From contig JACROI010000021.1 in the NCBI GenBank assembly GCA_016214465.1, positions 1-45,520 of the forward strand: a stretch of 45,520 nt of DNA. Direction: 5' to 3'. The position numbers and the translations under genes are program-made. This DNA is from Candidatus Magasanikiibacteriota bacterium (GTDB lineage: Bacteria; Patescibacteriota; Patescibacteriia; Magasanikbacterales; UBA10003). Shown here piece after piece: positions 2,382-39,104 of the stretch (position 1 is the stretch's first letter; each line of letters begins with the position of its first letter). The notes beneath the pieces are model-generated. The model was not told where the DNA came from. It ran no database searches and saw only the letters and a list, made by a program, of their open reading frames with translations.

Positions 2382-4632
2382 TGTTTATGCTTCTTCTTCA
2401 ATCAATGTAGGTAATGGAGCGAATTCCAGCACTTTTAAAGGAAATTATTTAGCATTAACCAATGGGACGAGTTCTACCGTGTTTAATGGCAGTTCTTTGA
2501 CTTTGGGCCAGGGCACAAATTACAATTCCGGAATGTTTAATGTTAATTCTAATGGGAATGTGAACGCGTCAGGGACTATACAACTTGCTAAATTGGGAAC
2601 TTCCAGCGCTGGAGTTACAACTTACAATTCCCCCGATATTAATATCCAATCTTCTGCTTGGGATACCGATGGCTCGGAAGACACCTGGCAGTTTAAAATA
2701 AGGAATGCTCCTTCAAGTGCGGCGACTACAGTCGGAAATTTAAAATTTTTAGTACAAAAAAATGCAAATTCGGAAGCGATGGTGTTTTCTGCAGATAGCG
2801 CTGGAGCTTTTACAGCAGTCACATCATTAAATACTAACACCGGTATAGTCCAATCGAATAATACGTTAATGATAGTAAAGGGATGGGCGGCTGACGGGGG
2901 CACATCCGTCGGTGTGGCTTTGGACGCGGGAACTGCCTTTGTAAATGCTGGCGCAAAATTGGTTTCTATCAGAAACGCAGGAACAGAAAAAGCATATTTT
3001 AATGCCTCCGGCACACCTGCTTTTGGCATTCAGACTGGATATAATGATGGATTATTCAAGATAGATACCTCCGGCAATGTCTCTGCAACCGGCTCCCTCA
3101 AAACCTTTGGTAATGTTACTTCCACCGGCAATCTTTACGCTCTTACCAGCACTGCCAGCACTTCTATTTTAAATGGCAGTTCTTTGACTTTGGGCCAGGG
3201 CACTGCTTACAACTCCGGAATGTTTAATGTTGATTCTAATGGGAATGTGAGAACATCCGGCACTACTTTCCAAATGTATGACCCTAATTCAGGCCAATTG
3301 TCCGCTAACTTTAGTATAATCACTTCTGTGGGCGGCCCACCGGGGCAAAACTATGCATCCACGACTTTTAATTCACTAGTATATGACAGCGTTGGTTCTA
3401 CAGGTTTTGTTTTTAATACTTATGTAGGAGGAGAAGGAGGAGCCATGACTTCGGGCACTACACCCGGAGTGCCTGATACTGCCGCACCTGCTAAAGCTTT
3501 GGCTGTGTTTCAAAATAATGGCACTAACAAAGTTATAATTTCGGCTGGCGGCAATGTCTATGCGAAAAATAGTTTTATTGCTAACAGTACCACTTACAGC
3601 ATCGCTGATATGGCCGAGTACGTTAATTTAACTACTGGCGAAACCGGCGAGCCGGGTGATGTGCTAGTAGTGGATTTAGCCCATCCCAATCAATATAAAA
3701 AATCATCTTCCGCTTATTCCAAAGAGATTGCTGGCGTAATTTCCGATACCGGAGCGTTTTTGATGGGCGCCTCGGGTGAAGGCCGCGCTCCTTTGGCCTT
3801 GGCCGGTTTAGTTAAAACCAAAGTTACGGATGAAAATGGTCCGATTGCTGTTGGCGATTACTTGGTTTCCGCTTCCAAGCCAGGCTATGCTATGAAGTAT
3901 GATTCATCTTCCGGTAAATCGGCCGGGTTGGTTGGTATGGCATTGGAACCATTGGCTAACGGCGATGGCAAAATCACTATTATGGTGAATATGACTGTTG
4001 GTGAAAACGGCGATGGTACTTTGTCCGGTGGAGAGGATTGGGATGTTGGCGGAAAAAATATCTTAAATGTTAAATCAATCAGCGGCGCGAACGGGTTGTG
4101 GTATATTGATGAAAAAGGGTTCTTGATGGCTAAAGAAATCAAAGCCGATAAAGTGCAAGCCAAAAAATTCGTGGTGGAAAAAGAAACTAATTTGAAAAAA
4201 GCCAGCGTGGGCGAAGCCACCATTAGCCAAAATAATTCCAGTATAACGGTGGAGAATGAATTGATTACTTCAAAAGTTAAAATTTTCATTACTTTCCGTT
4301 CCAACCCGCAGTCATTTTGGTGGATTTCAAAACAAGAAGACGGTAAATTTGAAGTGTCTTTGAGCAAAGTGGCGGAAGTGGATTTGACATTTGATTATTG
4401 GATTGTGGGAGTGGAAGACGCGCCTGCATTAGAGACGAAATCCGCTCCAGCCGCGTCTGTTGCTCCGATTGAGACGCCGGTGGTGCCGGTTGTTGAATCT
4501 GCGCCAATTACTCCAATCGTTCCCGACACAGCATCCGCGTCAACAACCGTTGAAACACCGGCACCGGTTGCGCCAGTTGAATTAGCTCCGACAGAGTCAG
4601 CGTCGGTTTCCGATGAAGTTCCCAATCCTTAA
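2155..4632 (+). CDS. Giant surface protein, C-terminal segment in the +1 frame (tail-fibre/adhesin-like repeats, globular C-terminal domain, Pro/Ala/Val-rich tail)
   Basis: This frame is open from 2128 (TAG at 2125-2127) and continues the same repeat type (GNVTSTG, SSLTLGQGT.YNSGMFNV.SNGNV). It includes the block IADMAEYVNL...GEPGDVLVVD...IAGVISD...PLALAGLVKTKV...GPIAVGDYLVSASKPGYAMK. The track start at 2155 is a TTG. Confidence 0.7.
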   Translation: MQTTGSMLTYGNVTSTGIIYASGGLISSASSSFGSNVNVSGVLNASGTVYLGGNLLTGTGTGNSLDIGALNNAFRDVYASSSINVGNGANSSTFKGNYLALTNGTSSTVFNGSSLTLGQGTNYNSGMFNVNSNGNVNASGTIQLAKLGTSSAGVTTYNSPDINIQSSAWDTDGSEDTWQFKIRNAPSSAATTVGNLKFLVQKNANSEAMVFSADSAGAFTAVTSLNTNTGIVQSNNTLMIVKGWAADGGTSVGVALDAGTAFVNAGAKLVSIRNAGTEKAYFNASGTPAFGIQTGYNDGLFKIDTSGNVSATGSLKTFGNVTSTGNLYALTSTASTSILNGSSLTLGQGTAYNSGMFNVDSNGNVRTSGTTFQMYDPNSGQLSANFSIITSVGGPPGQNYASTTFNSLVYDSVGSTGFVFNTYVGGEGGAMTSGTTPGVPDTAAPAKALAVFQNNGTNKVIISAGGNVYAKNSFIANSTTYSIADMAEYVNLTTGETGEPGDVLVVDLAHPNQYKKSSSAYSKEIAGVISDTGAFLMGASGEGRAPLALAGLVKTKVTDENGPIAVGDYLVSASKPGYAMKYDSSSGKSAGLVGMALEPLANGDGKITIMVNMTVGENGDGTLSGGEDWDVGGKNILNVKSISGANGLWYIDEKGFLMAKEIKADKVQAKKFVVEKETNLKKASVGEATISQNNSSITVENELITSKVKIFITFRSNPQSFWWISKQEDGKFEVSLSKVAEVDLTFDYWIVGVEDAPALETKSAPAASVAPIETPVVPVVESAPITPIVPDTASASTTVETPAPVAPVELAPTESASVSDEVPNP

Positions 4633-6999: not shown

Positions 7000-8205
7000 T
7001 TGTATATGATATTTAAAAGTAAAAAAGTGCTTGTAGCCATTTCCGGCGGAGTGGATTCAGCGGTTGCCGCGGCTTTATTGCAAAAAGCCGGGTATGAAGT
7101 GACTGGCGCGTTTATGAAGTGCTATAGCGGTTCCATTCCTGGCGGTAAAGCGCCATGCTGGATTGAAGACCGGCGCGAAGCTCTGCGGGTGGCGGCAAAA
7201 CTCGGAATTAAGCTCCTAACTTTTGATTTTGAAAAAGAATATCATCGCGATGTGATTGATTATTTGTATAAAGAATATCGCGCCGGCCGCACGCCCAATC
7301 CTGATGTAATGTGCAATAAGTATGTTAAAATTCCGCTTTTGTTAAAAGCGGCTGAAAAACTGAGTTTTGATTATATCGCCACCGGGCATTATGCGCGTCT
7401 GTCTGTAAATTGTCATTGCGAGGAGCGAAGCGACGAAGCAATCTCGTATAAGCTTTTACAGGCAACAGACAAAAATAAAGATCAGACATATTTTTTACAT
7501 CAATTGGGACAAAAAGAATTGCGACGATTGATTTTTCCAATTGGCGAGTTGTGCAAAAATGAAGTTCGCGCGTTGGCCAAACAATTTGATTTGCCTGTAG
7601 CCGAGAGGGAAGAGAGTATGGGAATTTGTTTTGTGGGCGAGGTTCCGATGAAAGAATTTTTGCAAAAAAAAATCAAGCCGTGTCGCGGATCAGTGATTTT
7701 GAGCAATGGTGGAAAAGTCGGTGGACATGATGGATTGGCATTTTACACTATTGGAGAAAAATTTTCCTGTCATTCTAAGCGCCAGCGAAGAATCTCTGAT
7801 TATTGCACAATGGATTCTTCGGCTTTGCCTCAGAATGACAATAAGCGGGCGTTATATGTGGTAGACAAAGATATAAAACGCAATCGCCTTATCGTCGGCC
7901 TGGCCGATAACCCTCTATTGTTTAAGGAAAAAATACAAGTGAGTATGGTGAATTGGTTGGCTGGACAAGCGCCTAAATTTCCTTTATCATGTGAAGTGAG
8001 GTTGAGGCACCGTCAGTTGCTTCAAAAAGCCATTGTCAGAAATTTAAAGTCAAAAATTTTAGTGGAGTTTGAAGCGCCGCAGAGGGCTGTTACCCCGGGT
8101 CAGTTCGCGGTGTTTTATAAAGACTGTGAGTGTCTGGGGGGCGGAACAATACGAGATTGCCACGCCACGACGGATATTGGGGCTCGCAATGACAAAAACG
8201 ATTGA
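7000..8205 (+). CDS. mnmA: tRNA-specific 2-thiouridylase MnmA, with palindromic-element-derived insertions and C-terminal tail
   Basis: PP-loop VLVAISGGVDSAVAAALL. Also RTPNPDVMCN, IATGHYAR, KDQTYFL and PGQFAVFY..CLGGGTI. Confidence 0.9.
   Translation: MYMIFKSKKVLVAISGGVDSAVAAALLQKAGYEVTGAFMKCYSGSIPGGKAPCWIEDRREALRVAAKLGIKLLTFDFEKEYHRDVIDYLYKEYRAGRTPNPDVMCNKYVKIPLLLKAAEKLSFDYIATGHYARLSVNCHCEERSDEAISYKLLQATDKNKDQTYFLHQLGQKELRRLIFPIGELCKNEVRALAKQFDLPVAEREESMGICFVGEVPMKEFLQKKIKPCRGSVILSNGGKVGGHDGLAFYTIGEKFSCHSKRQRRISDYCTMDSSALPQNDNKRALYVVDKDIKRNRLIVGLADNPLLFKEKIQVSMVNWLAGQAPKFPLSCEVRLRHRQLLQKAIVRNLKSKILVEFEAPQRAVTPGQFAVFYKDCECLGGGTIRDCHATTDIGARNDKND
7411..7446 (+). repeat. P-family palindromic-element arm inserted in frame in mnmA (encodes CHCEERSDEAIS)
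   Basis: tgtcattgcgaggagcgaagcgacgaagcaatctc is the exact 35-nt reverse complement of the right arm of the 118-bp elements at 23762-23796 and 39053-39087. Confidence 0.85.
7768..7840 (+). repeat. P-family complete hairpin element inserted in frame in mnmA (encodes CHSKRQRRISDYCTMDSSALPQNDN)
   Basis: Arms are tgtcattctaagcgccagcgaagaatc (7768-7794) and gattcttcggctttgcctcagaatgaca (7813-7840), with complementary termini. Confidence 0.8.
8153..8194 (+). repeat. Degenerate P-family arm spanning the mnmA 3' end and the alaS start
   Basis: gagattgcc...ggctcgcaatgaca resembles the right-arm consensus gagattgcttcg...ctcgcaatgaca. It encodes the mnmA tail and contains the alaS ATG (8189-8191) within gcaATGaca. 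Confidence 0.65.
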
Positions 8206-10279
8206 AAATATGTTTTCTTATCACGACTTTCGGCAAAAATTTCTTGATTTTTTTCAAAGCAAAGGACATAAGATAATTTCCTCGGCTTCTTTGATTCCGG
8301 AAAATGATCCGACCGTGCTTTTCACCACTGCCGGCATGCACCCCTTGGTGCCGTATCTTTTGGGCGAAAAGCATCCGGAAGGGGCGCGTTTGACTAATGC
8401 GCAAAAGTGCTTGCGCACCGATGACATTGATGAAGTCGGGGACAGATGGCATTTGACCTTTTTTGAAATGCTTGGCAATTGGTCCTTGGGCTATGAAGGT
8501 GGAGAAGTCATTGCCAGCGGGCCTTACTGGAAAAATCAAGCGATTGAGTGGAGTTGGGAATTTTTAACAGATAAAAAATGGCTGGACTTGGATCCGCAGA
8601 AAATTTTTGTTTCTGTTTTTGCCGGAGACGAGCACGCGCCGCGCGATAATGAAGCAATTGAAATTTGGCAAGAAATTTTTGAACGCGCGGGCATTGATGC
8701 AAAAATTGGAGAAGGGGAGAGGATCGGTTTATACGGTCGTGCTAAAAATTGGTGGGGGCCGGCCGGGCAAACCGGGCCGTGCGGGCCTGATACCGAGATA
8801 TTTTATGATACTGGCAAAGAACACGATTCAAAATTCGGTGATAAATGTCATCAGAATTGCGATTGCGGCCGCTTTGCCGAGATTTGGAATAATGTTTTTA
8901 TGCAATATGCCAAAACATTTGACGGCGATTGCATTGAAATGACTTACAAAAATGTGGATACTGGAATGGGGTTGGAGCGGGTTTTGGCGATTTTAAATGA
9001 TAAGCAGAGTGTCTTTGAAATTGAAATTTTTTTACCCATCATTCGCAAGATTGAGGAATTGAGCGGTAAAAATTATACTGCTAATTTTGAAACTACCAAG
9101 GCCATCCGTATTATCGCCGACCATTTGCGCGCTGCCGTATTTATTTTAGGAGATGAGCGCGGCGTGGCGCCATCCAATATTGAGCAGGGATATATTTTAC
9201 GCCGATTGATTCGCCGCGCCATTCGTTTTGGCTATCAAATTGGAGTTAAAAAAGATTTTACAATGGAGATCGCGCGATTGGTAATGCAACTTTTTGGCCA
9301 ATTTTATCCGGAATTGGAAAAAAATCAACAAAGGATTTTTCAAGAATTATCAGCGGAAGAAAAAAAGTTTTCTCAAACGCTTTCCGCCGGTTTGAAAAAG
9401 ATTGAAATAATGGTGCGCAAAATTCATCGTTTGGAAAATGTTCTAACGCAGTTTAATGACGGGGATTTTGATGATGACGATGATCGTCAATTTGCGCAAT
9501 CAATTCTTAAAGATCCTTGGCTTGCTTCCGGAGATTTTTTACGGCGAATGTTGGAATTGAAAAATAAAGAAGAAATTAAGCGATTGGTTGCCGAGTTTGT
9601 TAAATTTTTCAAAATTTCCGGTAGTTTTGTTTTTGATCTTTATACTCAAGAAGGTTTTCCGCCAGAGATGATTAAAGAAGTAATGCTGTCGGTGGAACGG
9701 CCAATATTAAAATTTGAAACAATAAAATTGTCTTTGGATTTGGATTGGGATGGATTTAAAAAATTGTTCAAAGAACATCAGAATATTTCCCGCGCGGGCG
9801 CCGAACAAAAATTTAAAGGCGGTTTGATTGATACAAGCGATTTGGTGGCTAAATTGCACACTGCCACCCATCTTTTGCAAGCGGCTTTGCGCCAGGTCTT
9901 GGGCGTGGGAGTAATGCAAAAAGGCAGTAATATCACTGCCGAACGGTTGCGGTTTGATTTCAGTTGTCCTGAAAAAATGACCGCGGAGCAAATTAAACAA
10001 ACCGAGGACTTGGTTAATAATGTTATTGCTTCGGATTTACCGGTGAGATGTGAAGAAATGACTGTGGAAGAAGCGCAAAAAGCAGGCGCCATGGGTTTGT
10101 TTACAGCCAAGTATGGCGAAAGAGTAAGGGTCTACACTGTTGGTGATGATAAATACTTCAGCCGTGAGATTTGCGGCGGACCGCACGCTTCGCGCACCGG
10201 TGAACTCGGACATTTTATCATTATCAAAGAAGAGGCCTCCAGCGCCGGAGTCAGGCGCGTTAAAGCGATTTTGGAATAA
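8189..10279 (+). CDS. alaS: Alanine--tRNA ligase, short form ending after the editing domain
   Basis: FRQKFLDFFQSKGHKIISSASLIPENDPTVLFTTAGMHP. WGPAGQTGPCGPDTEIFYD. NVDTGMGLERV. Editing motifs HTATHLL and CGGPH. The protein ends ...SSAGVRRVKAILE. The ORF-track N-terminus from 8069 is read-through of mnmA in another frame. Confidence 0.9.
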   Translation: MTKTIENMFSYHDFRQKFLDFFQSKGHKIISSASLIPENDPTVLFTTAGMHPLVPYLLGEKHPEGARLTNAQKCLRTDDIDEVGDRWHLTFFEMLGNWSLGYEGGEVIASGPYWKNQAIEWSWEFLTDKKWLDLDPQKIFVSVFAGDEHAPRDNEAIEIWQEIFERAGIDAKIGEGERIGLYGRAKNWWGPAGQTGPCGPDTEIFYDTGKEHDSKFGDKCHQNCDCGRFAEIWNNVFMQYAKTFDGDCIEMTYKNVDTGMGLERVLAILNDKQSVFEIEIFLPIIRKIEELSGKNYTANFETTKAIRIIADHLRAAVFILGDERGVAPSNIEQGYILRRLIRRAIRFGYQIGVKKDFTMEIARLVMQLFGQFYPELEKNQQRIFQELSAEEKKFSQTLSAGLKKIEIMVRKIHRLENVLTQFNDGDFDDDDDRQFAQSILKDPWLASGDFLRRMLELKNKEEIKRLVAEFVKFFKISGSFVFDLYTQEGFPPEMIKEVMLSVERPILKFETIKLSLDLDWDGFKKLFKEHQNISRAGAEQKFKGGLIDTSDLVAKLHTATHLLQAALRQVLGVGVMQKGSNITAERLRFDFSCPEKMTAEQIKQTEDLVNNVIASDLPVRCEEMTVEEAQKAGAMGLFTAKYGERVRVYTVGDDKYFSREICGGPHASRTGELGHFIIIKEEASSAGVRRVKAILE

Positions 10280-10280
10280 C

Positions 10281-11927
10281 ATGCCACGCAAGTTTTTATT
10301 TTTTATTTTTGTCGTCTATTTGTTCACGGCGATTTTTTTGTATCGCCCGATTTTAAATTCTTTTTTTGTTTCCGATGATTTTGACTGGATCGCTCGCGCG
10401 AAAAATATGCCTTTGGTTTTAGAAAATTTATTTTTGCGCAATGCCGATGGAAAATTAGAAGGCGCGGTTTATAGACCGATAACCAGTTTATCATTTTGGC
10501 TGAATTATCAAGCCAGCGGCTTAAATCCATTTGGTTATCATTTAGTGAATATTTTATTGCATTTAGGCGGCGCGCTATTATTATGTTGGCTGGTGTGGCA
10601 ATTATCAGGTCGCAGTAATTATTGGCTCTCATTTTTGGCCGGTTTGTTTTTTTTGATTTTTCCCAATCACTCCGAGGCCGTGTCTTGGATTTCCGGCCGC
10701 AATGATGCGTTGGCCGTTAGTTTTTTTCTATTGAGTTTTAATTTTTATATTTTATTCAGAACCGGCGGCCGTTATTTATGGTTTGGCGTTTCATCGCTGG
10801 CTTTCGCTTTGGCGATTTTTTCCAAAGAAATGGCCGCTTCTTTGCCAATTATTTTATTGGTTTATGAATTGATTTTACAGAATGGCCTGTTTTGGAAAAA
10901 AAAGATTTTATTTATTTCTCCTTTCGCAATAATTTTAGGGCTTTACATATTGTTAAGACAATTTGCCACCGGTTTATTATTCAGTTCCTATTCCAACATT
11001 CAATCGTCATTTTCCATTTTTTCCGCAATTGCTGTTTTTATCCGCGGTTTGCTAAGTCATTTTATCAGTCCGGCTCAAATTTGGATAACTAACGGATTAG
11101 CCGTCCATTGGATTTTATTTATTTTAATATTGATTGGGGCGGGCTGGCTCGGTTGGCGATTTTGTCAAGAAAAAAAGCTCTATCTTTTTGCCATGTTGTT
11201 TTTTATTATTTCCTTGGGTCCGGTGTATAATCTGCAATTAAGCGGCTTCACCAGCGAAGGAGAAAGGTTTGTTTATCTGTCTTCAATTGGAATGGCTGTG
11301 CTTTTGGCTGTTATTGTCGTGAGTTTGTGGAAAAAGCGGCGCGTGGTTGGCGTTCTAACAGCAACGATTTTAATTGCGTATTTTTCTTTTACTCTTTGGC
11401 AGAGAAATTTGGTTTGGCAAAATGCCGGAATTTTAAGTCAGCAATTAATTTCTGATTTTTCTTCGGAAACAGGTTTAAAATCAGGCGAGGGGACGGTGGT
11501 GTTGGGATTGCCGGATAATATTGATGGCGCTTATGTTTTTAGAAACGGTTGGCTGACCGCTTTAAAACTTTTTTATCCGACATATTCCGTTGATGTTTTA
11601 TCAACAAAAACTCTTTTGAATTTATCAGCCAATAATTTTAATCAAAAAGTGACTGATTGGACTGTTTTGTCAAATGGTTATCGCGCCACAGCTGTCTCTT
11701 CCGCGCGTCTTTTTACCGGCCAGGCCGAGCTTGATTCTTCGGACTATTTGTTAAACATCGTCAATTATGATACAATAATAAAGGCTGGTAATGAGGCGGA
11801 ATGGCGTTTTACACCAATGTTTATCGCCCAATTATCCTCCAAAACAATCAATTTTTTAGTGTTCAATGAGGGTAGATTGAAAAAAATCGACCCGATTGTT
11901 TATGTGTATAAAGAAAAAATTAATTGA
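10281..11927 (+). CDS. GT-C fold membrane glycosyltransferase (PMT/ArnT-like)
   Basis: ATG lies 2 nt after the alaS stop. Polytopic. YRPITSLSFWLNYQASGLNPFGYHLVNILLHLGGALLL is typical of PMT_2/TMTC-like mannosyltransferases. The C-terminal ~170 aa look soluble. Confidence 0.6.
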   Translation: MPRKFLFFIFVVYLFTAIFLYRPILNSFFVSDDFDWIARAKNMPLVLENLFLRNADGKLEGAVYRPITSLSFWLNYQASGLNPFGYHLVNILLHLGGALLLCWLVWQLSGRSNYWLSFLAGLFFLIFPNHSEAVSWISGRNDALAVSFFLLSFNFYILFRTGGRYLWFGVSSLAFALAIFSKEMAASLPIILLVYELILQNGLFWKKKILFISPFAIILGLYILLRQFATGLLFSSYSNIQSSFSIFSAIAVFIRGLLSHFISPAQIWITNGLAVHWILFILILIGAGWLGWRFCQEKKLYLFAMLFFIISLGPVYNLQLSGFTSEGERFVYLSSIGMAVLLAVIVVSLWKKRRVVGVLTATILIAYFSFTLWQRNLVWQNAGILSQQLISDFSSETGLKSGEGTVVLGLPDNIDGAYVFRNGWLTALKLFYPTYSVDVLSTKTLLNLSANNFNQKVTDWTVLSNGYRATAVSSARLFTGQAELDSSDYLLNIVNYDTIIKAGNEAEWRFTPMFIAQLSSKTINFLVFNEGRLKKIDPIVYVYKEKIN

Positions 11928-22229: not shown

Positions 22230-23654
22230 TTAATTTTTAGCCAATGGTTCGGCTGGCGGAGCGATTGCAATGGGGGAGCCGAGTGCGTGCAATTCCAGCG
22301 CTGGTTGTGCGACAGTGATAATATTCGTCCAATTTAATCCAAGAGTATTGAATGTCGCTTCATCGGCAATAGGTCGGCGTTCAGCATTGGAAATCAAGAA
22401 AATTTCCGGCGAGTCGGCAATTTTAAGTAAGGCGCCGTCATTAAATTTAATCGGTTCGCCATCAGAATATTTTTTTAGCTCCGTGGCTGCGGCCAATCGC
22501 GCTTTTTTATTTGGCCAATTTGTTTGCGCGATTTTTTTATCCAAAATCGCGTGTTTGATACTGTTTTCCACAAAAAATAATTCTTTGGTTTTTGAATTTT
22601 GCATCAATGCGCCCAAAGGAAATTTTTTGTCTTTAACAATCGGCTCGCCCAAAGTATAGACAGCCAGTTCTTCATCGCTGACTTTGACAACTTCATCAGG
22701 ATCAAAACCAAAATAGCGGAAAGCGGTTTTGTCAATCATGCGTCGAACACTCCCTGACAGCAAGTAAATTTCTCCAGCCGGATTTTTGAGTAATGAAAAA
22801 TCAGGATATTTTATTTTTGCGCCGACTTCATATTGTTCCAATAAATCAGCAATGGTTATCAAAACTTCATTGGCTTTCCAGCGAGAATTAAATGCGGCCG
22901 TGGATAGTGGATATCTTCGTCCATTTTTTATCAGCCAGATTTGTGAATCATCGCTGGCGCGAACAATCACGCCATCAGGAAAAATTTGCGTTCCGCCAAA
23001 CCATCTCTGCCAAATTTTCCAAAAATTGTAATTTCCACGAAAATGCGGAGTGTAGGTGTAAAGCAAGGCTGTGGCGCGATTGGCCGGAATCACGGGAATG
23101 GAATCAATGCTATAAAGCAAGCCGGGTTTTTTCAGCCAGATCTCGGGCGGATTGTCCAGAAAATAGCGGAAAGAAGCGGCGGCGGAATCAATTTGTTTGA
23201 CCAGTCCTTTGAATTTGATAATTGACGGATCATTTTGGTCGCAAGCGTCACAGCGAGCATAGCCGGTAGCCCAATCAAAATTGTATTGACTGGGAGTGGA
23301 ATTTTCAATCAAGCTTTGTTCTTTTTGCAATAACACCAATAGCACGCGCGGATTGATTTGATAATTTTGCGCTGCTTGAAAAATTATCTCCGTGGCTGTT
23401 TTATTCAGTCCTGTGGCAGGGTCAATTATTTCGTAATTGGACAAGGCACCGGATTTGTTTTTCAAAAAGGCCGCGATGTCTTCGTGGCTCATCGTATTGG
23501 CATTGGTCAATTCATCATCAGTGATAATCATGTTGGGATTAAAGTCAGGATCAACCGCGCTGTCCATAGCCGGAATTTGCGCCAAAGCAGGTGAGGCGAA
23601 TAAAACAAAATTAGCTAAAAATGCCCAAATTATAGTTTTTTTGGATGTGGTCAT
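22230..23654 (-). CDS. Secreted protein with a putative cell-wall-hydrolase-like N-domain and repeated C-terminal modules
   Basis: Signal peptide IIWAFLANFVLFASPALAQ. NPRVLLVLLQKEQSLIEN resembles a motif I recall from peptidoglycan-hydrolase-associated domains. Confidence 0.5.
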   Translation of the reverse strand: MTTSKKTIIWAFLANFVLFASPALAQIPAMDSAVDPDFNPNMIITDDELTNANTMSHEDIAAFLKNKSGALSNYEIIDPATGLNKTATEIIFQAAQNYQINPRVLLVLLQKEQSLIENSTPSQYNFDWATGYARCDACDQNDPSIIKFKGLVKQIDSAAASFRYFLDNPPEIWLKKPGLLYSIDSIPVIPANRATALLYTYTPHFRGNYNFWKIWQRWFGGTQIFPDGVIVRASDDSQIWLIKNGRRYPLSTAAFNSRWKANEVLITIADLLEQYEVGAKIKYPDFSLLKNPAGEIYLLSGSVRRMIDKTAFRYFGFDPDEVVKVSDEELAVYTLGEPIVKDKKFPLGALMQNSKTKELFFVENSIKHAILDKKIAQTNWPNKKARLAAATELKKYSDGEPIKFNDGALLKIADSPEIFLISNAERRPIADEATFNTLGLNWTNIITVAQPALELHALGSPIAIAPPAEPLAKN

Positions 23655-23695
23655 GAGAAGATTATATCAAATAAATTGCGTATTAACAAAAACCA

Positions 23696-23813
23696 AGACC
23701 GTCCAACAACTCGTTTTTTGTCATTGCGAGCGAAGCGAAGCAATCTCTTTTGGCTTAAAACGAGATTGCTTCGTCGCTTCGCTCCTCGCAATGACAGTTG
23801 TTGGACAGTCTGG
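23696..23813. repeat. 118-bp composite palindromic element (copy 1), in the spacer between two minus-strand genes
   Basis: Outer inverted repeat: gaccgtccaacaact with agttgttggacagtc. Inner P-family arms: tgtcattgcgagcgaagcgaagcaatctc and gagattgcttcgtcgcttcgctcctcgcaatgaca. Identical over 118 nt to 38987-39104. Confidence 0.9.
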
Positions 23814-23824
23814 GTTTGATTATT

Positions 23825-24343
23825 TTATTCTCTAATCGGCATTATTTTTTTTCTCGCCATCCAATATCTCACTCCTTCATAGCACCCAAATAACACGGCC
23901 ACATAAAAAATATCACCCAAAAGCATATTGCGCCAGAATGGAATGGCGGCGATGTAGCTGGCTAAAAGTCCGTCGCTTGTAAATGGATAGAGTGTGCCAA
24001 ACTGCCAAACCGCCAAATTAGTCACTAGAAAAAAAATAGTTGAGCTGGCCAGAGTGGCGCCAAAAGTGGTGACGACTCCGCGGTGTTTGCCTAGCCACCA
24101 GCCCAAGAAACCGGACACGGCAAAGCTCCCGTACACGGAAATCATAATTGGCGCGCTGTAAAAGCCGATGAATAAATCACTCAAAAACATGGCGGCCATT
24201 GGCAGAAGAATGCTCAATCTTTTGTTTAAATAAACGCCGGAAAAAAGCGCCACGGCGGCAATAGGCGTGAAATTGGCCGGATGCGGCAGAAACCGCGCCG
24301 CAATGGCCAGAAGCACGAGAAAATATGGAAAGAATTTTTGCAT
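23825..24343 (-). CDS. Small ~6-TM membrane protein, last gene of the riboswitch-controlled operon (candidate corrinoid transporter or S-component)
   Basis: 172 aa and almost entirely hydrophobic. LPHPANFTPIAAVALFSGVYL. The start lies 2 nt after the stop of the upstream gene. Confidence 0.6.
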   Translation of the reverse strand: MQKFFPYFLVLLAIAARFLPHPANFTPIAAVALFSGVYLNKRLSILLPMAAMFLSDLFIGFYSAPIMISVYGSFAVSGFLGWWLGKHRGVVTTFGATLASSTIFFLVTNLAVWQFGTLYPFTSDGLLASYIAAIPFWRNMLLGDIFYVAVLFGCYEGVRYWMARKKIMPIRE

Positions 24344-24345
24344 AT

Positions 24346-26634
24346 TTAGATAAATGTTAATAATAATCTTCCAAATAAAAATATGGTGGCTCCGGCAAAC
24401 AGAATCGCGCTACCGGTGGCAGTGGTTGTGGCGACTTTTTTCTCCAGAGGGGCGATGGGCGATGGTGTTTCAGGAGGACTGTTAGTGATGTTTGCCATGG
24501 CTGGAGTTTCCGGTTGGCTTATTATTGTAGATTGCGCGGGTGCTGTCGGCGTGGGAGAAAGTTTTAATGGTTTAATTATATCAGGAACGGAACTTGAAGG
24601 CAAGGCGTTTTTTACAATTTCCTCTGCTGATGAAGTTGGCGTCAGCGCGATTATTTCAATCGGTTCTGAAATAACAGGCAAGGTTGACGATGTCATTGCC
24701 AGAGTAGAAGTCGCGGTAATTGGCAAAGTTGATGTGGCAGTTGAAGATGCTGTTTCAATAGGGGTAGATAAAATACTGCCCACACTCCCACCCACGCCGC
24801 CAGAATTCGCTGGAGCAGGTGTTGGTTGCGGTTTTGGAGTTAAAATTATCGGCCACGATTTTCCCAGTAACGCAGGCACGGCGTGTTTTGTGCCAAACCA
24901 ATCAACTATGCCCGGTGCCCAAGCCGACTCGTAATAACCGTCGGTTTTTAATTGCTCGGTCAAAACCGACCATGGATTCTTGTTTTGACTGTTAGTCCAA
25001 TCAGTTTGTCCTTCATTTAAAGAATTTACGCCCATCATGGCCCAGCCTGTGGTAAGCGGGTCAGAAACGCCAAAGCCCCAGCCGCCGTCAGCTAGTTGTT
25101 GTGATTTTAAATAGGCCTTGGCTTTGGTAAAGATATTTTGGTCAATTGTCGCGCCTTTATTTTTGGCATATTGCAGAGCGTTCACAGCCGCGCCGGTAAT
25201 ATCAGCTGAAGCCCAGCCGGCCCAAGTAAAAGCGCCGTCCGCGGTTTGGTCTGCAATAATTGTGGCCAAAATATCATTGGCAATCAATTCGTTCGCCGGC
25301 GTATCAGTCGCAAGTAAAGCGAAGAGCGCAAAAACATCATCATTAATTCCATTCAATCCGTATTTGTTGTTTTTATAGCACTCTGCGCTTTTGATTTTTG
25401 AGATTAAATTTTGGACGGTGTTATCCGAGCCGGCCATGCCCGAAGCAAGAAATGCCAAAGTATGCCGTGGATAACTGGCGCATAGATTTAGCAAATCGCT
25501 TTCATCAGTAAAATTATATCCTTTGGCAAAATTTAATAATGATGTACTGCTGGCGGCGATTTCGTCGGCGTATTGATTATTGGCGCCAAAAGACATTATT
25601 GCCCAGTCGGTAATACTGGCATCAATTATTTTTCCATCCGCGCTTTGTTGTGTTTTTAAAAAATTAAGAATTGATTGGGTTTTGGCCGCGATATCCGCTG
25701 ATGAAATTGTCGGAGTGGGAGTTAATGAACCACCGCCTCCGCCACCACCTGTATTGGTGTCGGTTTCAGGTGTGCTCGTGGCCGTGGAGGTTGGAGTTTC
25801 AGGAGCCGGGAGCACTGTGAGAGTTATGGGCCAGCTCCATTTGGAATAATCTGTCGAGGTGATTTTTGCAAAATAGGTGCCAGTGGCGGAAAAAGCGTAT
25901 TCAACAGTGCCAGAGGCATTGGTGGCGAGGGTTGTTGTGGTGATAGTCGTGTCCCACCAGCCAGTTTGGTTTGGATTGGGGATGCTGATGTCAACAGTGT
26001 CATTGCGGTCAAGTGTCCATTCATCGTCCAGATTGTCGTAATTGTATCGCCAAGTTTGCAAAGTGGTGGTAGTGTTTATTGGAAAAGTACTGGTAGTTGC
26101 GGTGATTTTCCAAGAATCGTCAAAGTAAATGTAAACAGTGTCGTTATTTTGCAAACCGTATGAATCCATGCCGATGCTTGGGTATGATCCATTAACAGAA
26201 TAATTCCAATTGCCGCAGGCCGAAGTGCTCGTTGGCGCGGTAATGACAAGGCAGTTAAGGTAGAAACTTTGATAGGCGTCGTAGTAATCAAGTTGGGAGA
26301 TTGAAAAATTGTCCGAAAGCGCGTCAGCCTCTGTTAGAATTGTGAGCGGGCTGGATGAGGCGTTGACAGAGTGGCTTCCGGCAGTGTCCATAAGTGAGCT
26401 GGTGGCAGTGGAGGTTACTGCGCCGGAAAACAGAAAAGAATCTTGGTAGCGGAGAAAAAAGTTGATAGAGAGGCCCGGTGTACTCGTGGCAGTTGAAGTT
26501 GCTATTTCTTGTGTCGGGATTGTAATTTCAGGCGTGCTGGTAGTTTCTTCGGCCTGAACCGGTCTGGCGGAGAAGAATATTAAGACAATTGTCATTCCAA
26601 TGAAAATTGGAATCTTAAAATTTCGCATTTTCAT
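24346..26634 (-). CDS. Surface-anchored multidomain protein: signal peptide, DUF4430-like domain, beta-rich module, prenyltransferase/terpene-cyclase-like alpha/alpha toroid, Pro/Thr stalk, C-terminal TM anchor
   Basis: Signal peptide IFIGMTIVLIFFSARPVQA. DUF4430 signature ACGNWNYSVNGSYPSIGMDSYGLQNNDTVYIYF. A Gly7 linker. Toroid repeats QQSADGKI, DQTADGAFTW, QQLADGGWGF. C-terminal anchor GSAILFAGATIFLFGRLLLTFI. Confidence 0.7.
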   Translation of the reverse strand: MKMRNFKIPIFIGMTIVLIFFSARPVQAEETTSTPEITIPTQEIATSTATSTPGLSINFFLRYQDSFLFSGAVTSTATSSLMDTAGSHSVNASSSPLTILTEADALSDNFSISQLDYYDAYQSFYLNCLVITAPTSTSACGNWNYSVNGSYPSIGMDSYGLQNNDTVYIYFDDSWKITATTSTFPINTTTTLQTWRYNYDNLDDEWTLDRNDTVDISIPNPNQTGWWDTTITTTTLATNASGTVEYAFSATGTYFAKITSTDYSKWSWPITLTVLPAPETPTSTATSTPETDTNTGGGGGGGSLTPTPTISSADIAAKTQSILNFLKTQQSADGKIIDASITDWAIMSFGANNQYADEIAASSTSLLNFAKGYNFTDESDLLNLCASYPRHTLAFLASGMAGSDNTVQNLISKIKSAECYKNNKYGLNGINDDVFALFALLATDTPANELIANDILATIIADQTADGAFTWAGWASADITGAAVNALQYAKNKGATIDQNIFTKAKAYLKSQQLADGGWGFGVSDPLTTGWAMMGVNSLNEGQTDWTNSQNKNPWSVLTEQLKTDGYYESAWAPGIVDWFGTKHAVPALLGKSWPIILTPKPQPTPAPANSGGVGGSVGSILSTPIETASSTATSTLPITATSTLAMTSSTLPVISEPIEIIALTPTSSAEEIVKNALPSSSVPDIIKPLKLSPTPTAPAQSTIISQPETPAMANITNSPPETPSPIAPLEKKVATTTATGSAILFAGATIFLFGRLLLTFI
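26590..26614. repeat. Short hairpin with P-family-like termini at the junction of two operon genes
   Basis: tgtcattccaatgaaaattggaatc has the same TGTCATTCC-hairpin-GGAATC frame as 27262-27287. It encodes part of the signal peptide (KIPIFIGMT). Confidence 0.45.
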
Positions 26635-27253
26635 AGCGCCAAGTGATTATATCGTTATGATTAAGTTTAATGTAGGAGACGCCTAATTTGGCCGCTTGAC
26701 CATTGATGTAGTAAATCCAGTAAAGATTTGATTTGGAATCGTTGGTTAAGTTGTCAATCGTTTCCACAAACGCGCCCAAGCTACTGAATTGGGAGAATTT
26801 AATGGGGATTTGCTCTTGCAGTTGTTGCATGGCTTCGTAAACTGTGCTTTGTGGTGCAACTTTGATTGGAAATTCTTTATTGAACGTGGGCGCGATGAAT
26901 TTGAAAGTGACAGAGATACTATTTTCATCAGGTTTTTCAATTGGTGTTACATTGGAAATTGCGTCAGCCACAAAAGAAGTCGCGGAAATTGGTTGTTTAT
27001 TTTTTTCAGAGTCATTGCGAGGCGCAGCCGAAGCAATCTCGTTTTTATCATCCCGAGCGGAGCGAAGGATATTTTGCGAAATTGTCCCAGTAGCAAAAGA
27101 ATCCGTGGATTTCATCTCCGCTGTTTTTGTTGATGTGTTTTGAATCGTCTGTTTATCCAGATTATTCAGCCAAATCATACTCCAAATCAAAAGCAGGCCG
27201 GACAGCGCCCATAGGCCAAAGTGGTGGGTATGTTTTTTAACAAAATGTTTCAT
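26615..27253 (-). CDS. Membrane-anchored DUF4430 (transcobalamin beta-domain-like) protein, first gene after the riboswitch
   Basis: Start chosen at ATG 27253 (MKHFVKK...); the track start at 27292 is a TTG inside a repeat hairpin. TM anchor FGLWALSGLLLIWSMIWL. C-terminus SNLYWIYYINGQAAKLGVSYIKLNHNDIITWRYE. Confidence 0.7.
   Translation of the reverse strand: MKHFVKKHTHHFGLWALSGLLLIWSMIWLNNLDKQTIQNTSTKTAEMKSTDSFATGTISQNILRSARDDKNEIASAAPRNDSEKNKQPISATSFVADAISNVTPIEKPDENSISVTFKFIAPTFNKEFPIKVAPQSTVYEAMQQLQEQIPIKFSQFSSLGAFVETIDNLTNDSKSNLYWIYYINGQAAKLGVSYIKLNHNDIITWRYENAKF
27011..27071. repeat. Two tandem P-family arms inserted in frame in the DUF4430 gene (encode SARDDKNEIASAAPRNDS on the minus strand)
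   Basis: gtcattgcgaggcgcagccgaagcaatctcg followed by tcatcccgagcggagcgaaggata. Confidence 0.7.
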
Positions 27254-27261
27254 AGTTTTTT

Positions 27262-27287
27262 TGTCATTCCCGCGAAAGCGGGAATCC
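27262..27287. repeat. P-family-related short hairpin in the 5' UTR of the operon
   Basis: tgtcattcccgcgaaagcgggaatcc, with stem attcccgc / gcgggaat. Confidence 0.6.
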
Positions 27288-27300
27288 AGCAATATATTTA

Positions 27301-27333
27301 AAAACTCTTTTCCGGCAAAAAGAAAAGAGTTGT
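27301..27333 (-). terminator. Intrinsic terminator forming the riboswitch expression platform
   Basis: Minus-strand RNA AACUCUUUUC-uuuuugccg-GAAAAGAGUU followed by UUAAAU. Confidence 0.6.
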
Positions 27334-27367
27334 CCTTTTCTCCTGCTCGGGAGTTGGTGTATGTGGA

Positions 27368-27464
27368 TAACTTTTAAACAAAGTTCCGGCTGGCCCCTGT
27401 GTGTGGGGGTTCACGGTTGCGGCACAGTGGGGGATTTGCGCCCCTCTTCCATGCTTAAAAGTTA
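27368..27464 (-). promoter_or_regulatory. Cobalamin riboswitch aptamer (compact, class-II-like)
   Basis: Minus-strand RNA: UAACUUUUAAGCAUGGAAGAGGGGCGCAAAUCCCCCACUGUGCCGCAACCGUGAACCCCCACACACAGGGGCCAGCCGGAACUUUGUUUAAAAGUUA. It has a GGAAG + GGGG-CGCAAAU-CCCC hairpin, a C.G..CCGC.AC.GU.A junction, a B12-box-like GCCAGCCGGAAC and a 10-bp P1. Confidence 0.75.
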
Positions 27465-27492
27465 GGTGTGGATAAGTTTTAATGGTGATTTT

Positions 27493-27522
27493 AGAATAGC
27501 AGAAAAAGGTAGTAGTTGTCAA
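27493..27522 (-). promoter_or_regulatory. Promoter of the riboswitch operon
   Basis: On the minus strand: TTGACA (27522-27517), 18-nt spacer, TATTCT (27498-27493). Confidence 0.4.
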
Positions 27523-27565: not shown

Positions 27566-28885
27566 ATGGTAATTTTAGGAATAAAAATTGACAATTTTTC
27601 AAAATCGGAAATTTTAGCTAAAATTAGCGAATTTTTGCGTTTGGGTGCCGGACATTTTATTACCACTCCAAATCCGGAAATGCTGGTTGATGTGGAATAT
27701 GATTGGTTTTTCAAGCAGGCCTTGAATAAGGCGGAAATGGCAGTGGCAGATGGGTTTGGTTTGCCTCTTGCAGCGCGATATTTATATGGCGAAAAACTAA
27801 CTCGTTGGGCCGGTATTGATTTGATGGAGAAAATTTGTGAAATTGCCGCCGAGCAGAAAAAAAGCGTGTATTTGATTGGCGGAAAAGAGGGGATTGCGGC
27901 CAAAGCGGCCGAAAAATTGCAAAAAAAATTTTTTGGGTTGAAAGTTGTTGGAGCGGAGAGTGGGATTGTGTTTGAATGTCATCCCGAGCGAAGCGAGGGA
28001 TCTTTGCATACCAATATTCTCAAAGATTCTTCGCCACGTTTGGACTGGGCTCAGAATGACAACGGCGAGTATCTTACAGGTTTAAATTTTAATGTTGCTG
28101 AGAATAATAAATTATTGGAACGCATCCGCGCCGCTACTCCAGATATTCTTTTTGTGGCTTTTGGTCATGGCAAACAGGAAAAATGGTTGGCGGAATTTTT
28201 ATCACAATTGCCATTAGTAAAAATTGGCATGGGAGTGGGCGGGGCTTTTGATTATATTTCCGGCCAAGTTTTGCGCGCGCCGAAATTTGTGCGTCAGCTC
28301 GGATTTGAATGGTTGTGGCGTTTGTTGAATCAGCCATGGCGGATAAAACGAATTTGGAAAGCAGTTGTGTCTTTTGGTTTGTTGGTGAAAGATTACAAAA
28401 TACAAATTGCCATGCCTTATCGCCAAGGAGTAATCGGATTTATTGTAAATAGGGAAGGAAAATTTTTTATCGCCAAACGTTGTCCAATGCCAACTGATTC
28501 ATATTTTTTTAATATTGAGCACTGGCAGCCGCCGCAAGGTGGAATCAGCGTTGACGAAACGGCCGAACAGGCGATTTTGAAAGAAGTGCGAGAGGAAACC
28601 GGAATGACAGCCGAGATTGTGGCGCGTTGTGTTGATGTTTGTAAATATGACTGGAGTATTGCCTTTATGAAGAAGAAAGGCAAGGGTTATCATTTCAGGG
28701 GTCAACAAAAATCAGTTTTTCTGCTAAAATACAATGGTGACGGCAGTGACATCAAAGTGGATAAAATTGAGCTGTGCGGTTACCGTTGGGTGGATTTGGA
28801 AGAACTGAAAAAAATAATTCATCCGATGCGCCGGCCGTCTTTAGAAATTTTATTAAATGAAATTAAATTTCGAGATATTTTATAG
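27566..28885 (+). CDS. WecG/TagA/CpsF-family (GT26) glycosyltransferase fused in frame to an RppH-like Nudix hydrolase
   Basis: N-terminal ILGIKIDNFSKSEILAKI, TPNPEMLV, IGGKEGIA, PDILFVAFGHGKQEKW, APKF....GFEWLWRL..P.R. From M283 (28412): YRQGVIGFIV, WQPPQGGISVDETAEQAILKEVREETGM (Nudix box). Confidence 0.75.
   Translation: MVILGIKIDNFSKSEILAKISEFLRLGAGHFITTPNPEMLVDVEYDWFFKQALNKAEMAVADGFGLPLAARYLYGEKLTRWAGIDLMEKICEIAAEQKKSVYLIGGKEGIAAKAAEKLQKKFFGLKVVGAESGIVFECHPERSEGSLHTNILKDSSPRLDWAQNDNGEYLTGLNFNVAENNKLLERIRAATPDILFVAFGHGKQEKWLAEFLSQLPLVKIGMGVGGAFDYISGQVLRAPKFVRQLGFEWLWRLLNQPWRIKRIWKAVVSFGLLVKDYKIQIAMPYRQGVIGFIVNREGKFFIAKRCPMPTDSYFFNIEHWQPPQGGISVDETAEQAILKEVREETGMTAEIVARCVDVCKYDWSIAFMKKKGKGYHFRGQQKSVFLLKYNGDGSDIKVDKIELCGYRWVDLEELKKIIHPMRRPSLEILLNEIKFRDIL
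27977..28061 (+). repeat. P-family element (two arms plus spacer) inserted in frame in the GT26 domain (encodes CHPERSEGSLHTNILKDSSPRLDWAQNDN)
   Basis: Arms tgtcatcccgagcgaagcgagggatc (27977-28002) and gattcttcgccacgtttggactgggctcagaatgaca (28025-28061). Confidence 0.75.
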
Positions 28886-38955: not shown

Positions 38956-38986
38956 AGAAAATGATTTGTTAGCTTGTCATTGCGAC

Positions 38987-39104
38987 AGACCGTCCAACAA
39001 CTCGTTTTTTGTCATTGCGAGCGAAGCGAAGCAATCTCTTTTGGCTTAAAACGAGATTGCTTCGTCGCTTCGCTCCTCGCAATGACAGTTGTTGGACAGT
39101 CTGG
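38987..39104. repeat. 118-bp composite palindromic element (copy 2), nested inside a short P-type hairpin
   Basis: 100% identical to 23696-23813. Flanked by tgtcattgcga (38975-38985) and ggcaatctcg (39106-39115). Confidence 0.9.

Follow-up and report, generated by a model that had tools for sequence, protein, structure and literature searches.

The window analysed here is a 45,520-nucleotide (nt) stretch of contig JACROI010000021.1 from a Candidatus Magasanikiibacteriota bacterium (Patescibacteria, or Candidate Phyla Radiation, CPR), and the subject of this study is a group of three minus-strand genes in it that follows a cobalamin riboswitch. This operon probably encodes a riboswitch-controlled system, repressed by vitamin B12 (B12), for scavenging, that is, capturing and taking up, B12 or other corrinoids. 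CPR bacteria are reduced-genome organisms that depend on the nutrients of others. The three open reading frames (ORFs) were located at 26615-27253 (gene 1), 24346-26634 (gene 2) and 23825-24343 (gene 3). Genes 1 and 2 overlap by 20 nt (26615-26634), and genes 2 and 3 are separated by a gap of 2 nt (24344-24345). An original prediction, made by a model from the letters of the DNA alone, had described three packed genes with this overlap and gap behind a riboswitch. The ORFs and a match to Rfam family RF01482 confirmed the layout, and all the peptide motifs quoted in the prediction were found in the translations.

The operon features described below are all on the minus strand. The riboswitch aptamer occupies positions 27330-27477 and matched the adenosylcobalamin (AdoCbl) riboswitch model RF01482 (clan CL00101) over its full length (model positions 1-149 of 149), with 54.1 bits against a gathering score of 50. 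Directly upstream of it, the consensus scan picked out a promoter-like site at 27493-27522 (TTGACA, an 18-nt spacer and TATTCT, with TG; 10 of 12 matches), which is a pattern only. The aptamer is followed by an 11-bp hairpin, AACUCUUUUCU/GGAAAAGAGUU, and then UUU (27300-27331; RNA fold z = -3.5), which looks like an intrinsic terminator and would thus serve as a transcription-termination expression platform. The consensus terminator scan of the leader did not flag this hairpin because its stem is A/U-rich. RNA folding revealed a second small hairpin, UUCCCGCG/CGCGGGAA, at 27266-27285, 12 nt before the ATG of gene 1. This ATG lies at 27253, and an alternative TTG start at 27292 is situated inside the leader hairpins; therefore, the ATG is the more plausible start. 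The possibility that the leader hairpin CGCGGGAATGAC is a dispersed repeat was rejected, as its 5 matches against about 3 expected represent no enrichment. At the other end of the operon, 3' of gene 3, a giant palindromic hairpin similar to repetitive extragenic palindromic (REP) elements and followed by a U-tract spans 23685-23817 (-75.7 kcal/mol, z = -9.7). RNA folding and a regular-expression search showed that its palindrome of about 55 bp holds the dispersed motif GTCATTGCGAG/GAGATTGCTTCG, and it is the probable operon terminator. The promoter-like site, the leader and this closing hairpin together define the unit as a discrete three-gene operon.

Gene 1 encodes a protein of 212 residues in which the ORF and Pfam analyses placed a DUF4430 domain, that is, a domain of the SLBB type resembling the beta domain of transcobalamin (26630-26848). 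The match to DUF4430 (PF14478) was nearly full-length, covering residues 136-208 with E = 1.7e-15 and 57.7 bits against a cut-off of 23.8. The N-terminal segment FGLWALSGLLLIWSMIWLN (approximately 27146-27214) is anchor-like and would tether the protein to the membrane. Its mean Kyte-Doolittle hydropathy, calculated by hand, is about 1.56, just below the 1.6 threshold, and the script did not flag it. The linker between the anchor and DUF4430 contains an in-frame REP-like insert (27011-27040). Neither gene 1 nor gene 2 gave anything significant when its sequence alone was compared with the PDB, and NCBIfam offers no model for gene 1 or gene 3.

Gene 2 encodes a surface protein of 762 residues, the parts of which were delimited by combining the ORF with Pfam, AlphaFold2, Foldseek and hydrophobic segments. 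A signal peptide (26551-26634) is followed by an SLBB/DUF4430 domain (approximately 26119-26472), a beta-sandwich (approximately 25810-26112), a Gly/Thr linker (25726-25797), an alpha/alpha toroid (approximately 24868-25701), a Pro/Thr stalk and a C-terminal transmembrane anchor (24358-24414). Hydrophobic segments at residues 3-21 and 741-759 support the signal peptide and the C-terminal anchor. The Pfam match to DUF4430 (E = 3.6e-6, 27.8 bits) covers residues 142-172, which is the C-terminal half of the domain only (profile positions 41-71). In the AlphaFold2 model of residues 50-620, with a predicted local distance difference test score (pLDDT) of 90, a beta-rich N-terminal domain with one helix (the SLBB domain), the beta-sandwich, the disordered Gly/Thr linker and the toroid are all visible.

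When the toroid was searched with Foldseek, the top matches were complement TED domains, alpha-2-macroglobulins and small squalene-hopene-cyclase-like proteins, and drimenyl-diphosphate synthase was also matched. Cobalamin-bound bovine transcobalamin (2bb6_A) came at rank 41 (E = 6.6e-6, 325 columns, TM-score 0.45 on the target). Such a search cannot separate transcobalamin from complement TED domains or cyclases, and the fold alone was not used for assigning membership. Among 41 homologues of gene 2, 40 matched SQHop_cyclase_C weakly, 29 matched DUF4430, 7 the transcobalamin alpha-domain family PF01122 and 4 TED. In one of these homologues (P0205), the PF01122 match scored 31.1 bits against a cut-off of 25, over 44 residues only. 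Gene 2 itself stayed below the cut-offs of the cyclase models (19.5 against 26.1 bits for PF13243, SQHop_cyclase_C, and 17 against 322.7 for TIGR01787). The cyclase DVDD sequence of the DxDD motif aligns with the stretch GWASADIT of the gene 2 family, which has a single Asp, and the QW-type repeats common to the gene 2 toroid and the cyclases show superfamily relatedness only. The original prediction had taken the toroid for the alpha half of a transcobalamin. This was correct as far as the fold superfamily is concerned, but the gene 2 toroid is not placed in the PF01122 family, and its sequence is nearer to squalene-hopene-cyclase-type toroids.

Gene 3 encodes a protein of 172 residues with the fold of the S-components of energy-coupling factor (ECF) transporters, and it is the putative corrinoid translocator of the system. 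It matched PF20221 (DUF6580) over profile positions 11-156 of 162 with E = 3e-48, scoring 164.5 bits where the cut-off is 27, and NCBI labels this family "DUF6580 family putative transport protein". The AlphaFold2 model consists of six helices (pLDDT 89, predicted TM-score (pTM) 0.82), and Foldseek paired it with the S-components RibU, FolT, PanT and ThiT (TM-score 0.5-0.58, probability 0.87-0.99). The suggestion that this six-helix protein resembles ECF S-components or BtuM was thus borne out by its fold. When the DUF6580 profile was run against all PDB sequences at E up to 10, the sole chain returned was 6fnp_A (E = 0.18). The entry 6FNP represents ECF-CbrT, a vitamin B12 ECF transporter (PMC5997447), and this chain of 182 residues is its S-component CbrT, as indicated by its Pfam match (ECF_trnsprt) and by Lactobacillus homologues named "ECF transporter S component". 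Alignment of DUF6580 with a 19-member CbrT alignment by hhalign gave 90% probability and E = 1.6e-6 over 141 columns. The aligned residues include R17/R26, N24/N35, P27/P38, S55-D56/S66-N67, G60-F61/G71-F72 and G143-D144/G153-N154 (DUF6580/CbrT). Moreover, some CbrT homologues from Lactobacillales have precomputed matches to both PF20221 and PF12822 (ECF_trnsprt). The original prediction had presented the machinery as unlike ECF-CbrT, and this did not hold. Judged by these alignments, DUF6580 is a remote homologue or sister of the B12-specific S-component CbrT, in the sense of remote homology and not of membership, as gene 3 has no match to PF12822 at E up to 0.1.

Column conservation was computed over 199 DUF6580 sequences. 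The positions conserved in at least 97% of them include R17, P20, H21, N24, P27, D56, G60, Y71, F104, T108, N109, Y119, P135 and F136, and no column contains Cys in more than 30% of the sequences. Conserved His, Asp, Tyr and Arg in a similar order had made DUF6580 a candidate member of the BtuM family. This candidate was rejected because the invariant Cys of BtuM is missing and there is no detectable sequence similarity; the DUF6580 profile search of the PDB did not reach BtuM at E up to 10. The DUF6580 family is large, with 6,358 cluster representatives (50% identity) at E ≤ 1e-3 and 4,565 at E ≤ 1e-10. One protein of 337 residues (P0406) is a natural fusion of DUF6580 (residues 5-165), an extra transmembrane helix and DUF4430 (residues 255-329), in the reverse of the usual gene order, and this fits a physical partnership of DUF6580 and DUF4430 on the outer face of the membrane. 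In another protein (P0379), DUF6580 carries an N-terminal extension of 200 residues like the end of a toroid protein; this could be a gene-calling artefact and was not used as evidence.

For the analysis of the genomic context, GTDB species representatives were scanned with the DUF6580 profile. At least 591 relatives were confirmed, and 80 loci were kept, mostly from Patescibacteria, the others being labelled Ignavibacteria, Bacteroidota, Actinomycetes, Opitutaceae or Nanoarchaeia. A covariance model (R1) that we built from the window riboswitch and three orthologous leaders recovered the orthologous riboswitch at the same position in dozens of related loci, and 39 of its 39 matches lay on the strand of the DUF6580 gene. 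Since R1 was built on AdoCbl-type leaders and missed the AdoCbl-II and classical Cobalamin types, Rfam scans were added. With both approaches, at least 46 of the 80 loci were seen to carry a cobalamin-clan riboswitch that precedes the DUF6580 gene on its strand, and many of the loci without a match end short upstream.

Iterative searches identified ORFs for DUF4430 and/or toroid proteins upstream of DUF6580 in 65 loci (DUF4430 in 62, the toroid in 33), and all 121 of these ORFs run in the same direction as the DUF6580 gene. In 38 loci, DUF6580 is immediately adjoined by a small DUF4430 gene. Of the 63 small DUF4430 proteins, 60 carry a hydrophobic anchor at the N-terminus, and a riboswitch is present in 27 of the 33 toroid-bearing loci. 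These counts imply that the conserved core consists of the riboswitch, an anchored DUF4430 protein and DUF6580. The conservation shows the toroid protein to be an accessory, found mainly in Magasanikbacteria-like lineages, and DUF6580 to be paired almost always with a tethered DUF4430 protein. A chance arrangement is excluded because the layout is conserved in related loci, and the DUF6580 system is the prevalent B12-linked system in CPR genomes.

The neighbours of DUF6580 include enzymes that use or process B12. In 18 loci, the adjacent genes include a homologue of NrdJ, the class II ribonucleotide reductase, and all four homologues that were checked passed the TIGR02504 cut-off (559-647 against 400). 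NrdR is adjacent in 13 loci, the typical order being NrdR, NrdJ, riboswitch, DUF4430 and DUF6580. A PduO-type cobalamin adenosyltransferase gene lies beside DUF6580 in 8 loci, and the one checked passed the TIGR00636 cut-off. MetH is encoded directly downstream of DUF6580 in two loci (L030 and L042). NrdJ and MetH, which had been suggested as the source of a B12 demand, both adjoin the system in related loci. The wiring of DUF6580 to the use of the vitamin is thus visible in the series NrdR, NrdJ, riboswitch, DUF4430, DUF6580 and PduO. TonB-dependent receptors are among the neighbours in 10 loci. In loci of the Ignavibacteria/Bacteroidota type, the riboswitch is followed by a TonB-dependent receptor, sometimes by a PP-loop ATPase, in one locus (L010) by a BtuF-like protein, and then by DUF6580. 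The gene of this BtuF-like periplasmic protein (L010:4965-5963; Peripla_BP_2, with a weak BtuF NCBIfam match) immediately precedes DUF6580, and neither BtuC nor BtuD is encoded nearby, which hints that a classical substrate-binding protein can also serve DUF6580. In a riboswitch-controlled operon of Ignavibacteriaceae, a DUF5074 protein (L038:4870-5931) is encoded after the TonB-dependent receptor and before DUF6580, and it may likewise handle B12 at the surface or in the periplasm.

The anatomy of the leader suggests that when AdoCbl is abundant in the cell, the riboswitch would favour the terminator-like hairpin and the genes would not be transcribed. When B12 is scarce, two surface proteins would be displayed: the gene 1 protein with its SLBB domain, which is a homologue of the transcobalamin beta domain that contacts B12, and the gene 2 protein, in which a long Pro/Thr stalk bears an SLBB domain, a spacer beta-sandwich and a toroid. 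The corrinoid could be held, as in transcobalamin, between a toroid and an SLBB domain. We infer that the tethered SLBB protein hands the corrinoid to the six-helix DUF6580 protein, which would carry it across the membrane of a cell that appears to have no outer membrane. The near-invariant residues of loop 1 and helix 3 (R17, P20, H21, N24, P27, D56, G60 and Y71) would form the likeliest binding site, with His21 as a candidate cobalt ligand. As the surroundings of the DUF6580 gene yielded no ABC (ATP-binding cassette) or ECF-module gene, DUF6580 most likely acts either by itself, as BtuM does, or together with a shared ECF module whose genes lie elsewhere. Judging from the neighbours in related genomes, the imported B12 would be adenosylated by a PduO-type enzyme and then used by NrdJ. 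The genomic context lends strong support to the predicted function, namely the capture and uptake of corrinoids. The proposal of corrinoid scavenging by surface DUF4430/toroid proteins together with an S-component-like membrane protein was backed in particular by the conserved riboswitch and neighbours.

Several observations weigh against this interpretation. The window riboswitch scored only about 4 bits over the Rfam threshold, and a B12-dependent enzyme was not found in the 45-kb window. The AlphaFold2 model of gene 2 establishes no SLBB-toroid clamp (pTM 0.59, with the linker disordered). In the PDB, the sequence profile of the toroid is nearest to squalene-hopene cyclase (E = 7.7e-17) and its search does not reach transcobalamin, and gene 2 has no match to PF01122 at E up to 0.1. 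S-components normally bind their substrate directly, without extracellular binding proteins, and the hand-off lacks a tested precedent. No energy source for DUF6580 was found in the neighbourhoods searched. In addition, a homologous Lactobacillus system has been claimed to import haem (bioRxiv 10.1101/864751).

The question of energy coupling leads to a rival explanation, according to which DUF6580 is a group-II ECF S-component, namely a divergent CbrT, that docks on a shared EcfAA'T module encoded elsewhere, so that the operon would represent a CPR version of ECF-CbrT supplemented with surface capture proteins. The genes of group-II S-components usually lie apart from those of their module, and the remote CbrT homology and S-component fold of DUF6580 favour this explanation. 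So do the Lactobacillales CbrT homologues that match both PF20221 and PF12822, and the presence of CbiO/CbiQ in Firmicute SLBB operons (PMC1796856). However, no ORF with Walker A and LSGGQ motifs, which served as a motif-based proxy for ABC genes, was present within 6 kb on either side of the DUF6580 gene in the 80 loci. ABC_tran and CbiQ were absent from the 25 most recurrent families among 135 downstream neighbours, and the window contains no ABC or ECF-module gene. The lack of an ECF_trnsprt match in gene 3 also speaks against it, and ECF modules are uncommon in the Ignavibacteria, Bacteroidota and Opitutaceae lineages. In these three groups DUF6580 is found behind TonB-dependent receptors, mirroring the solitary BtuM (PMC6072759). 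We consider this explanation rather unlikely, although a serious competitor. A different rival concerns the substrate, which could be a different tetrapyrrole such as haem, or else an incomplete corrinoid such as cobinamide, instead of complete cobalamin. The Lactobacillus sakei locus lsa1836-1840, in which alpha-like and beta-like transcobalamin proteins are encoded beside an ECF transporter, has been tied to haem uptake (bioRxiv 10.1101/864751), Staphylococcus lugdunensis has a haem ECF transporter (PMC7299338), and cobinamide is accepted also by CbrT (PMC5997447) and BtuM (PMC6072759). Yet the control by cobalamin-clan riboswitches and the adjacency of NrdJ, the PduO-type adenosyltransferase and MetH point to cobamides, and cobinamide alone would require a nucleotide-loop assembly pathway, none of which was seen among the recurrent families of downstream neighbours. 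An alternative substrate therefore seems improbable.

Finally, gene 2 might be an extracellular enzyme (a terpene cyclase or prenyltransferase) or a complement-like, thioester-type (TED) protein, in which case its link with the riboswitch would be incidental and the function of DUF6580 unrelated. The name 'terpene cyclase/mutase family protein' that NCBI gives to gene 2 homologues agrees with this view, as do squalene-hopene cyclase as the best sequence-profile match in the PDB and the TED domains, alpha-2-macroglobulins and small cyclases at the top of the Foldseek results. Against this, an enzymatic role of the toroid is unlikely, because the cyclase models miss their cut-offs by far, the DxDD region has a single Asp, and the protein is displayed outside the cell, where, secreted and anchored, it would be kept away from isoprenoid substrates. 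In addition, the toroid of gene 2 shares a chain with DUF4430, and its gene always has the same orientation as DUF4430, DUF6580 and the riboswitch. The chance that gene 2 has such an unrelated function appears very small. Returning to corrinoid uptake, a broader model can be offered tentatively, as one that may well turn out differently: DUF6580 could be a large family of corrinoid transporters without an ECF module, a solitary S-component fed, in contrast to all characterised S-components, by a tethered DUF4430/SLBB protein, with the toroid completing a transcobalamin-like clamp in some lineages. It could then be the principal B12 route of Patescibacteria and some DPANN-labelled genomes, feeding NrdJ, and in Ignavibacteria, Bacteroidota and Verrucomicrobia it could be an alternative partner for BtuB at the inner membrane.

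Among the characterised systems close to gene 3 is ECF-CbrT of Lactobacillus delbrueckii (6FNP), the CbrT subunit of which is dedicated to cobalamin and binds it with nanomolar affinity (PMC5997447). Both DUF6580 and CbrT are small six-helix proteins with the S-component fold, and their motifs line up: loop 1 has R...P-N-x-x-P, helix 3 has S-(D/N)-x-x-x-G-F and helix 6 has G-(D/N). However, DUF6580 belongs to a separate Pfam family (PF20221, not PF12822), lacks a detectable EcfAA'T or ABC gene nearby in the 80 loci and in nearly all cases has a tethered DUF4430 protein as its partner. Its near-invariant His21 is absent from CbrT, and it occurs in CPR, DPANN-labelled and Gram-negative lineages, whereas CbrT comes from Lactobacillales. 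BtuM of Thiobacillus denitrificans is a solitary S-component-like B12 transporter defined by the invariant Cys80, which is the cobalt ligand (PMC6072759). Like DUF6580, it is a small S-component-fold protein with no ECF module alongside that plausibly works alone, and in Gram-negative bacteria it adjoins BtuB-type TonB-dependent receptors, as DUF6580 does in Ignavibacteria and Bacteroidota. In contrast to DUF6580, BtuM has no extracellular partner proteins, Cys80 has no counterpart in DUF6580, and the two sequences show no detectable similarity.

The surface proteins can be compared with transcobalamin, intrinsic factor and haptocorrin, which are built of the same two blocks (a PF01122 alpha domain and a DUF4430/SLBB beta domain) and sandwich one cobalamin between them. 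In gene 2 the order is reversed, with SLBB first and the toroid last, and a beta-sandwich and a disordered linker lie in between. Unlike the animal proteins, the operon encodes a second SLBB domain on a separate anchored protein, and both proteins are membrane-tethered. The gene 2 toroid resembles squalene-hopene-cyclase-type toroids more closely in sequence, and a transcobalamin-like clamp geometry is hypothetical. The Bacteroides surface lipoproteins BtuG and BtuH, compared here by description, have the same role as that proposed for genes 1 and 2, surface B12 capture feeding a transporter, but their folds are unrelated and they feed the outer-membrane BtuB. BtuG is a beta-propeller.

The original prediction had called the system undescribed, which is true of only a part of it. 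Burroughs, Balaji, Iyer and Aravind defined the SLBB superfamily in 2007 and described bacterial secreted or anchored transcobalamin-like SLBB proteins fused to toroids in either order, often accompanied in the operon by another, paralogous SLBB protein; the hosts do not synthesise B12, and a role in B12 scavenging was predicted (PMC1796856). The L. sakei locus has been noted as well. A prediction of the surface capture module thus existed in 2007, and gene 3 encodes a remote relative of the known CbrT with the S-component fold. Those operons carry an ECF module (CbiO/CbiQ) and an ECF_trnsprt-type S-component, whereas the sole membrane partner here is DUF6580, and neither riboswitch control nor linkage to NrdJ/PduO is described there. 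We found no paper on DUF6580 in the literature searched, and none linking cobalamin riboswitches or B12 transport with Patescibacteria/CPR. What is new, and well supported by context, is that an uncharacterised family of transporters, DUF6580, can be assigned to B12, paired with a tethered SLBB protein and with no detectable ECF module beside it.

The membrane importers of B12 are unidentified for many B12-dependent prokaryotes (PMC6072759), and the evidence presented here assigns a specific role, open to testing, to a functionally uncharacterised Pfam family of about 6,400 sequence clusters. If DUF6580 does operate without an ECF module and is fed by a tethered binding protein, this would be a new operating mode for the S-component class, and the operons would offer a bacterial setting in which to view the origin of the transcobalamin architecture of animals. 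DUF6580 could also be used as a marker gene for predicting B12 dependence in metagenomes.

Some further features of the related loci and of the window deserve mention. A PP-loop ATP-pyrophosphatase-like gene (Diphthami_syn_2, PF01902) adjoins DUF6580 in four loci of Ignavibacteria, Bacteroidota and Opitutaceae (L010:4213-4905, L012:2842-3630, L045:5252-5944 and L066:6519-7247), and in three of the four it is situated inside the B12-riboswitch operon. The Opitutaceae locus (L066) has a reversed order, in which DUF6580 and the PP-loop ATPase come first and a Cobalamin riboswitch (7469-7720) and a TonB-dependent receptor (7775-9703) are downstream. In two loci a second cobalamin riboswitch was found 3' of the DUF6580-PduO pair: an AdoCbl-II type at L029:7157-7234, followed by an ORF at 7306-8391, and a weak R1 match (E = 0.087) at L051:7048-7109, followed by an ORF at 7160-8476. 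The products of these ORFs are soluble Cys-rich proteins of 361-438 residues without a Pfam match, which have relatives at L016:7144-8538 and L068:7021-8214, and which we regard as putative B12-regulated genes of unknown function.

In the window itself, the REP-like palindromic element (GTCATTGCGAG ... GAGATTGCTTCG) is dispersed at 7412-7445, 8183-8193, 23720-23795, 27011-27040 and 38976-39086. It is in frame in the linker of gene 1, where it encodes the peptide EIASAAPRNDS, and in an MnmA-like ORF (7000-8205). A related variant at 27971-28060 is in frame inside a plus-strand ORF (27566-28885) that encodes a fusion of a WecG/TagA glycosyltransferase with NUDIX and is divergent from the riboswitch promoter region. 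Four large ORFs of the window (474-825 residues; 18-2381, 2155-4632, 10140-11927 and 22230-23654) have no significant Pfam match. One of these, the 474-residue protein encoded directly downstream of the operon, begins with an N-terminal hydrophobic, signal-like stretch.

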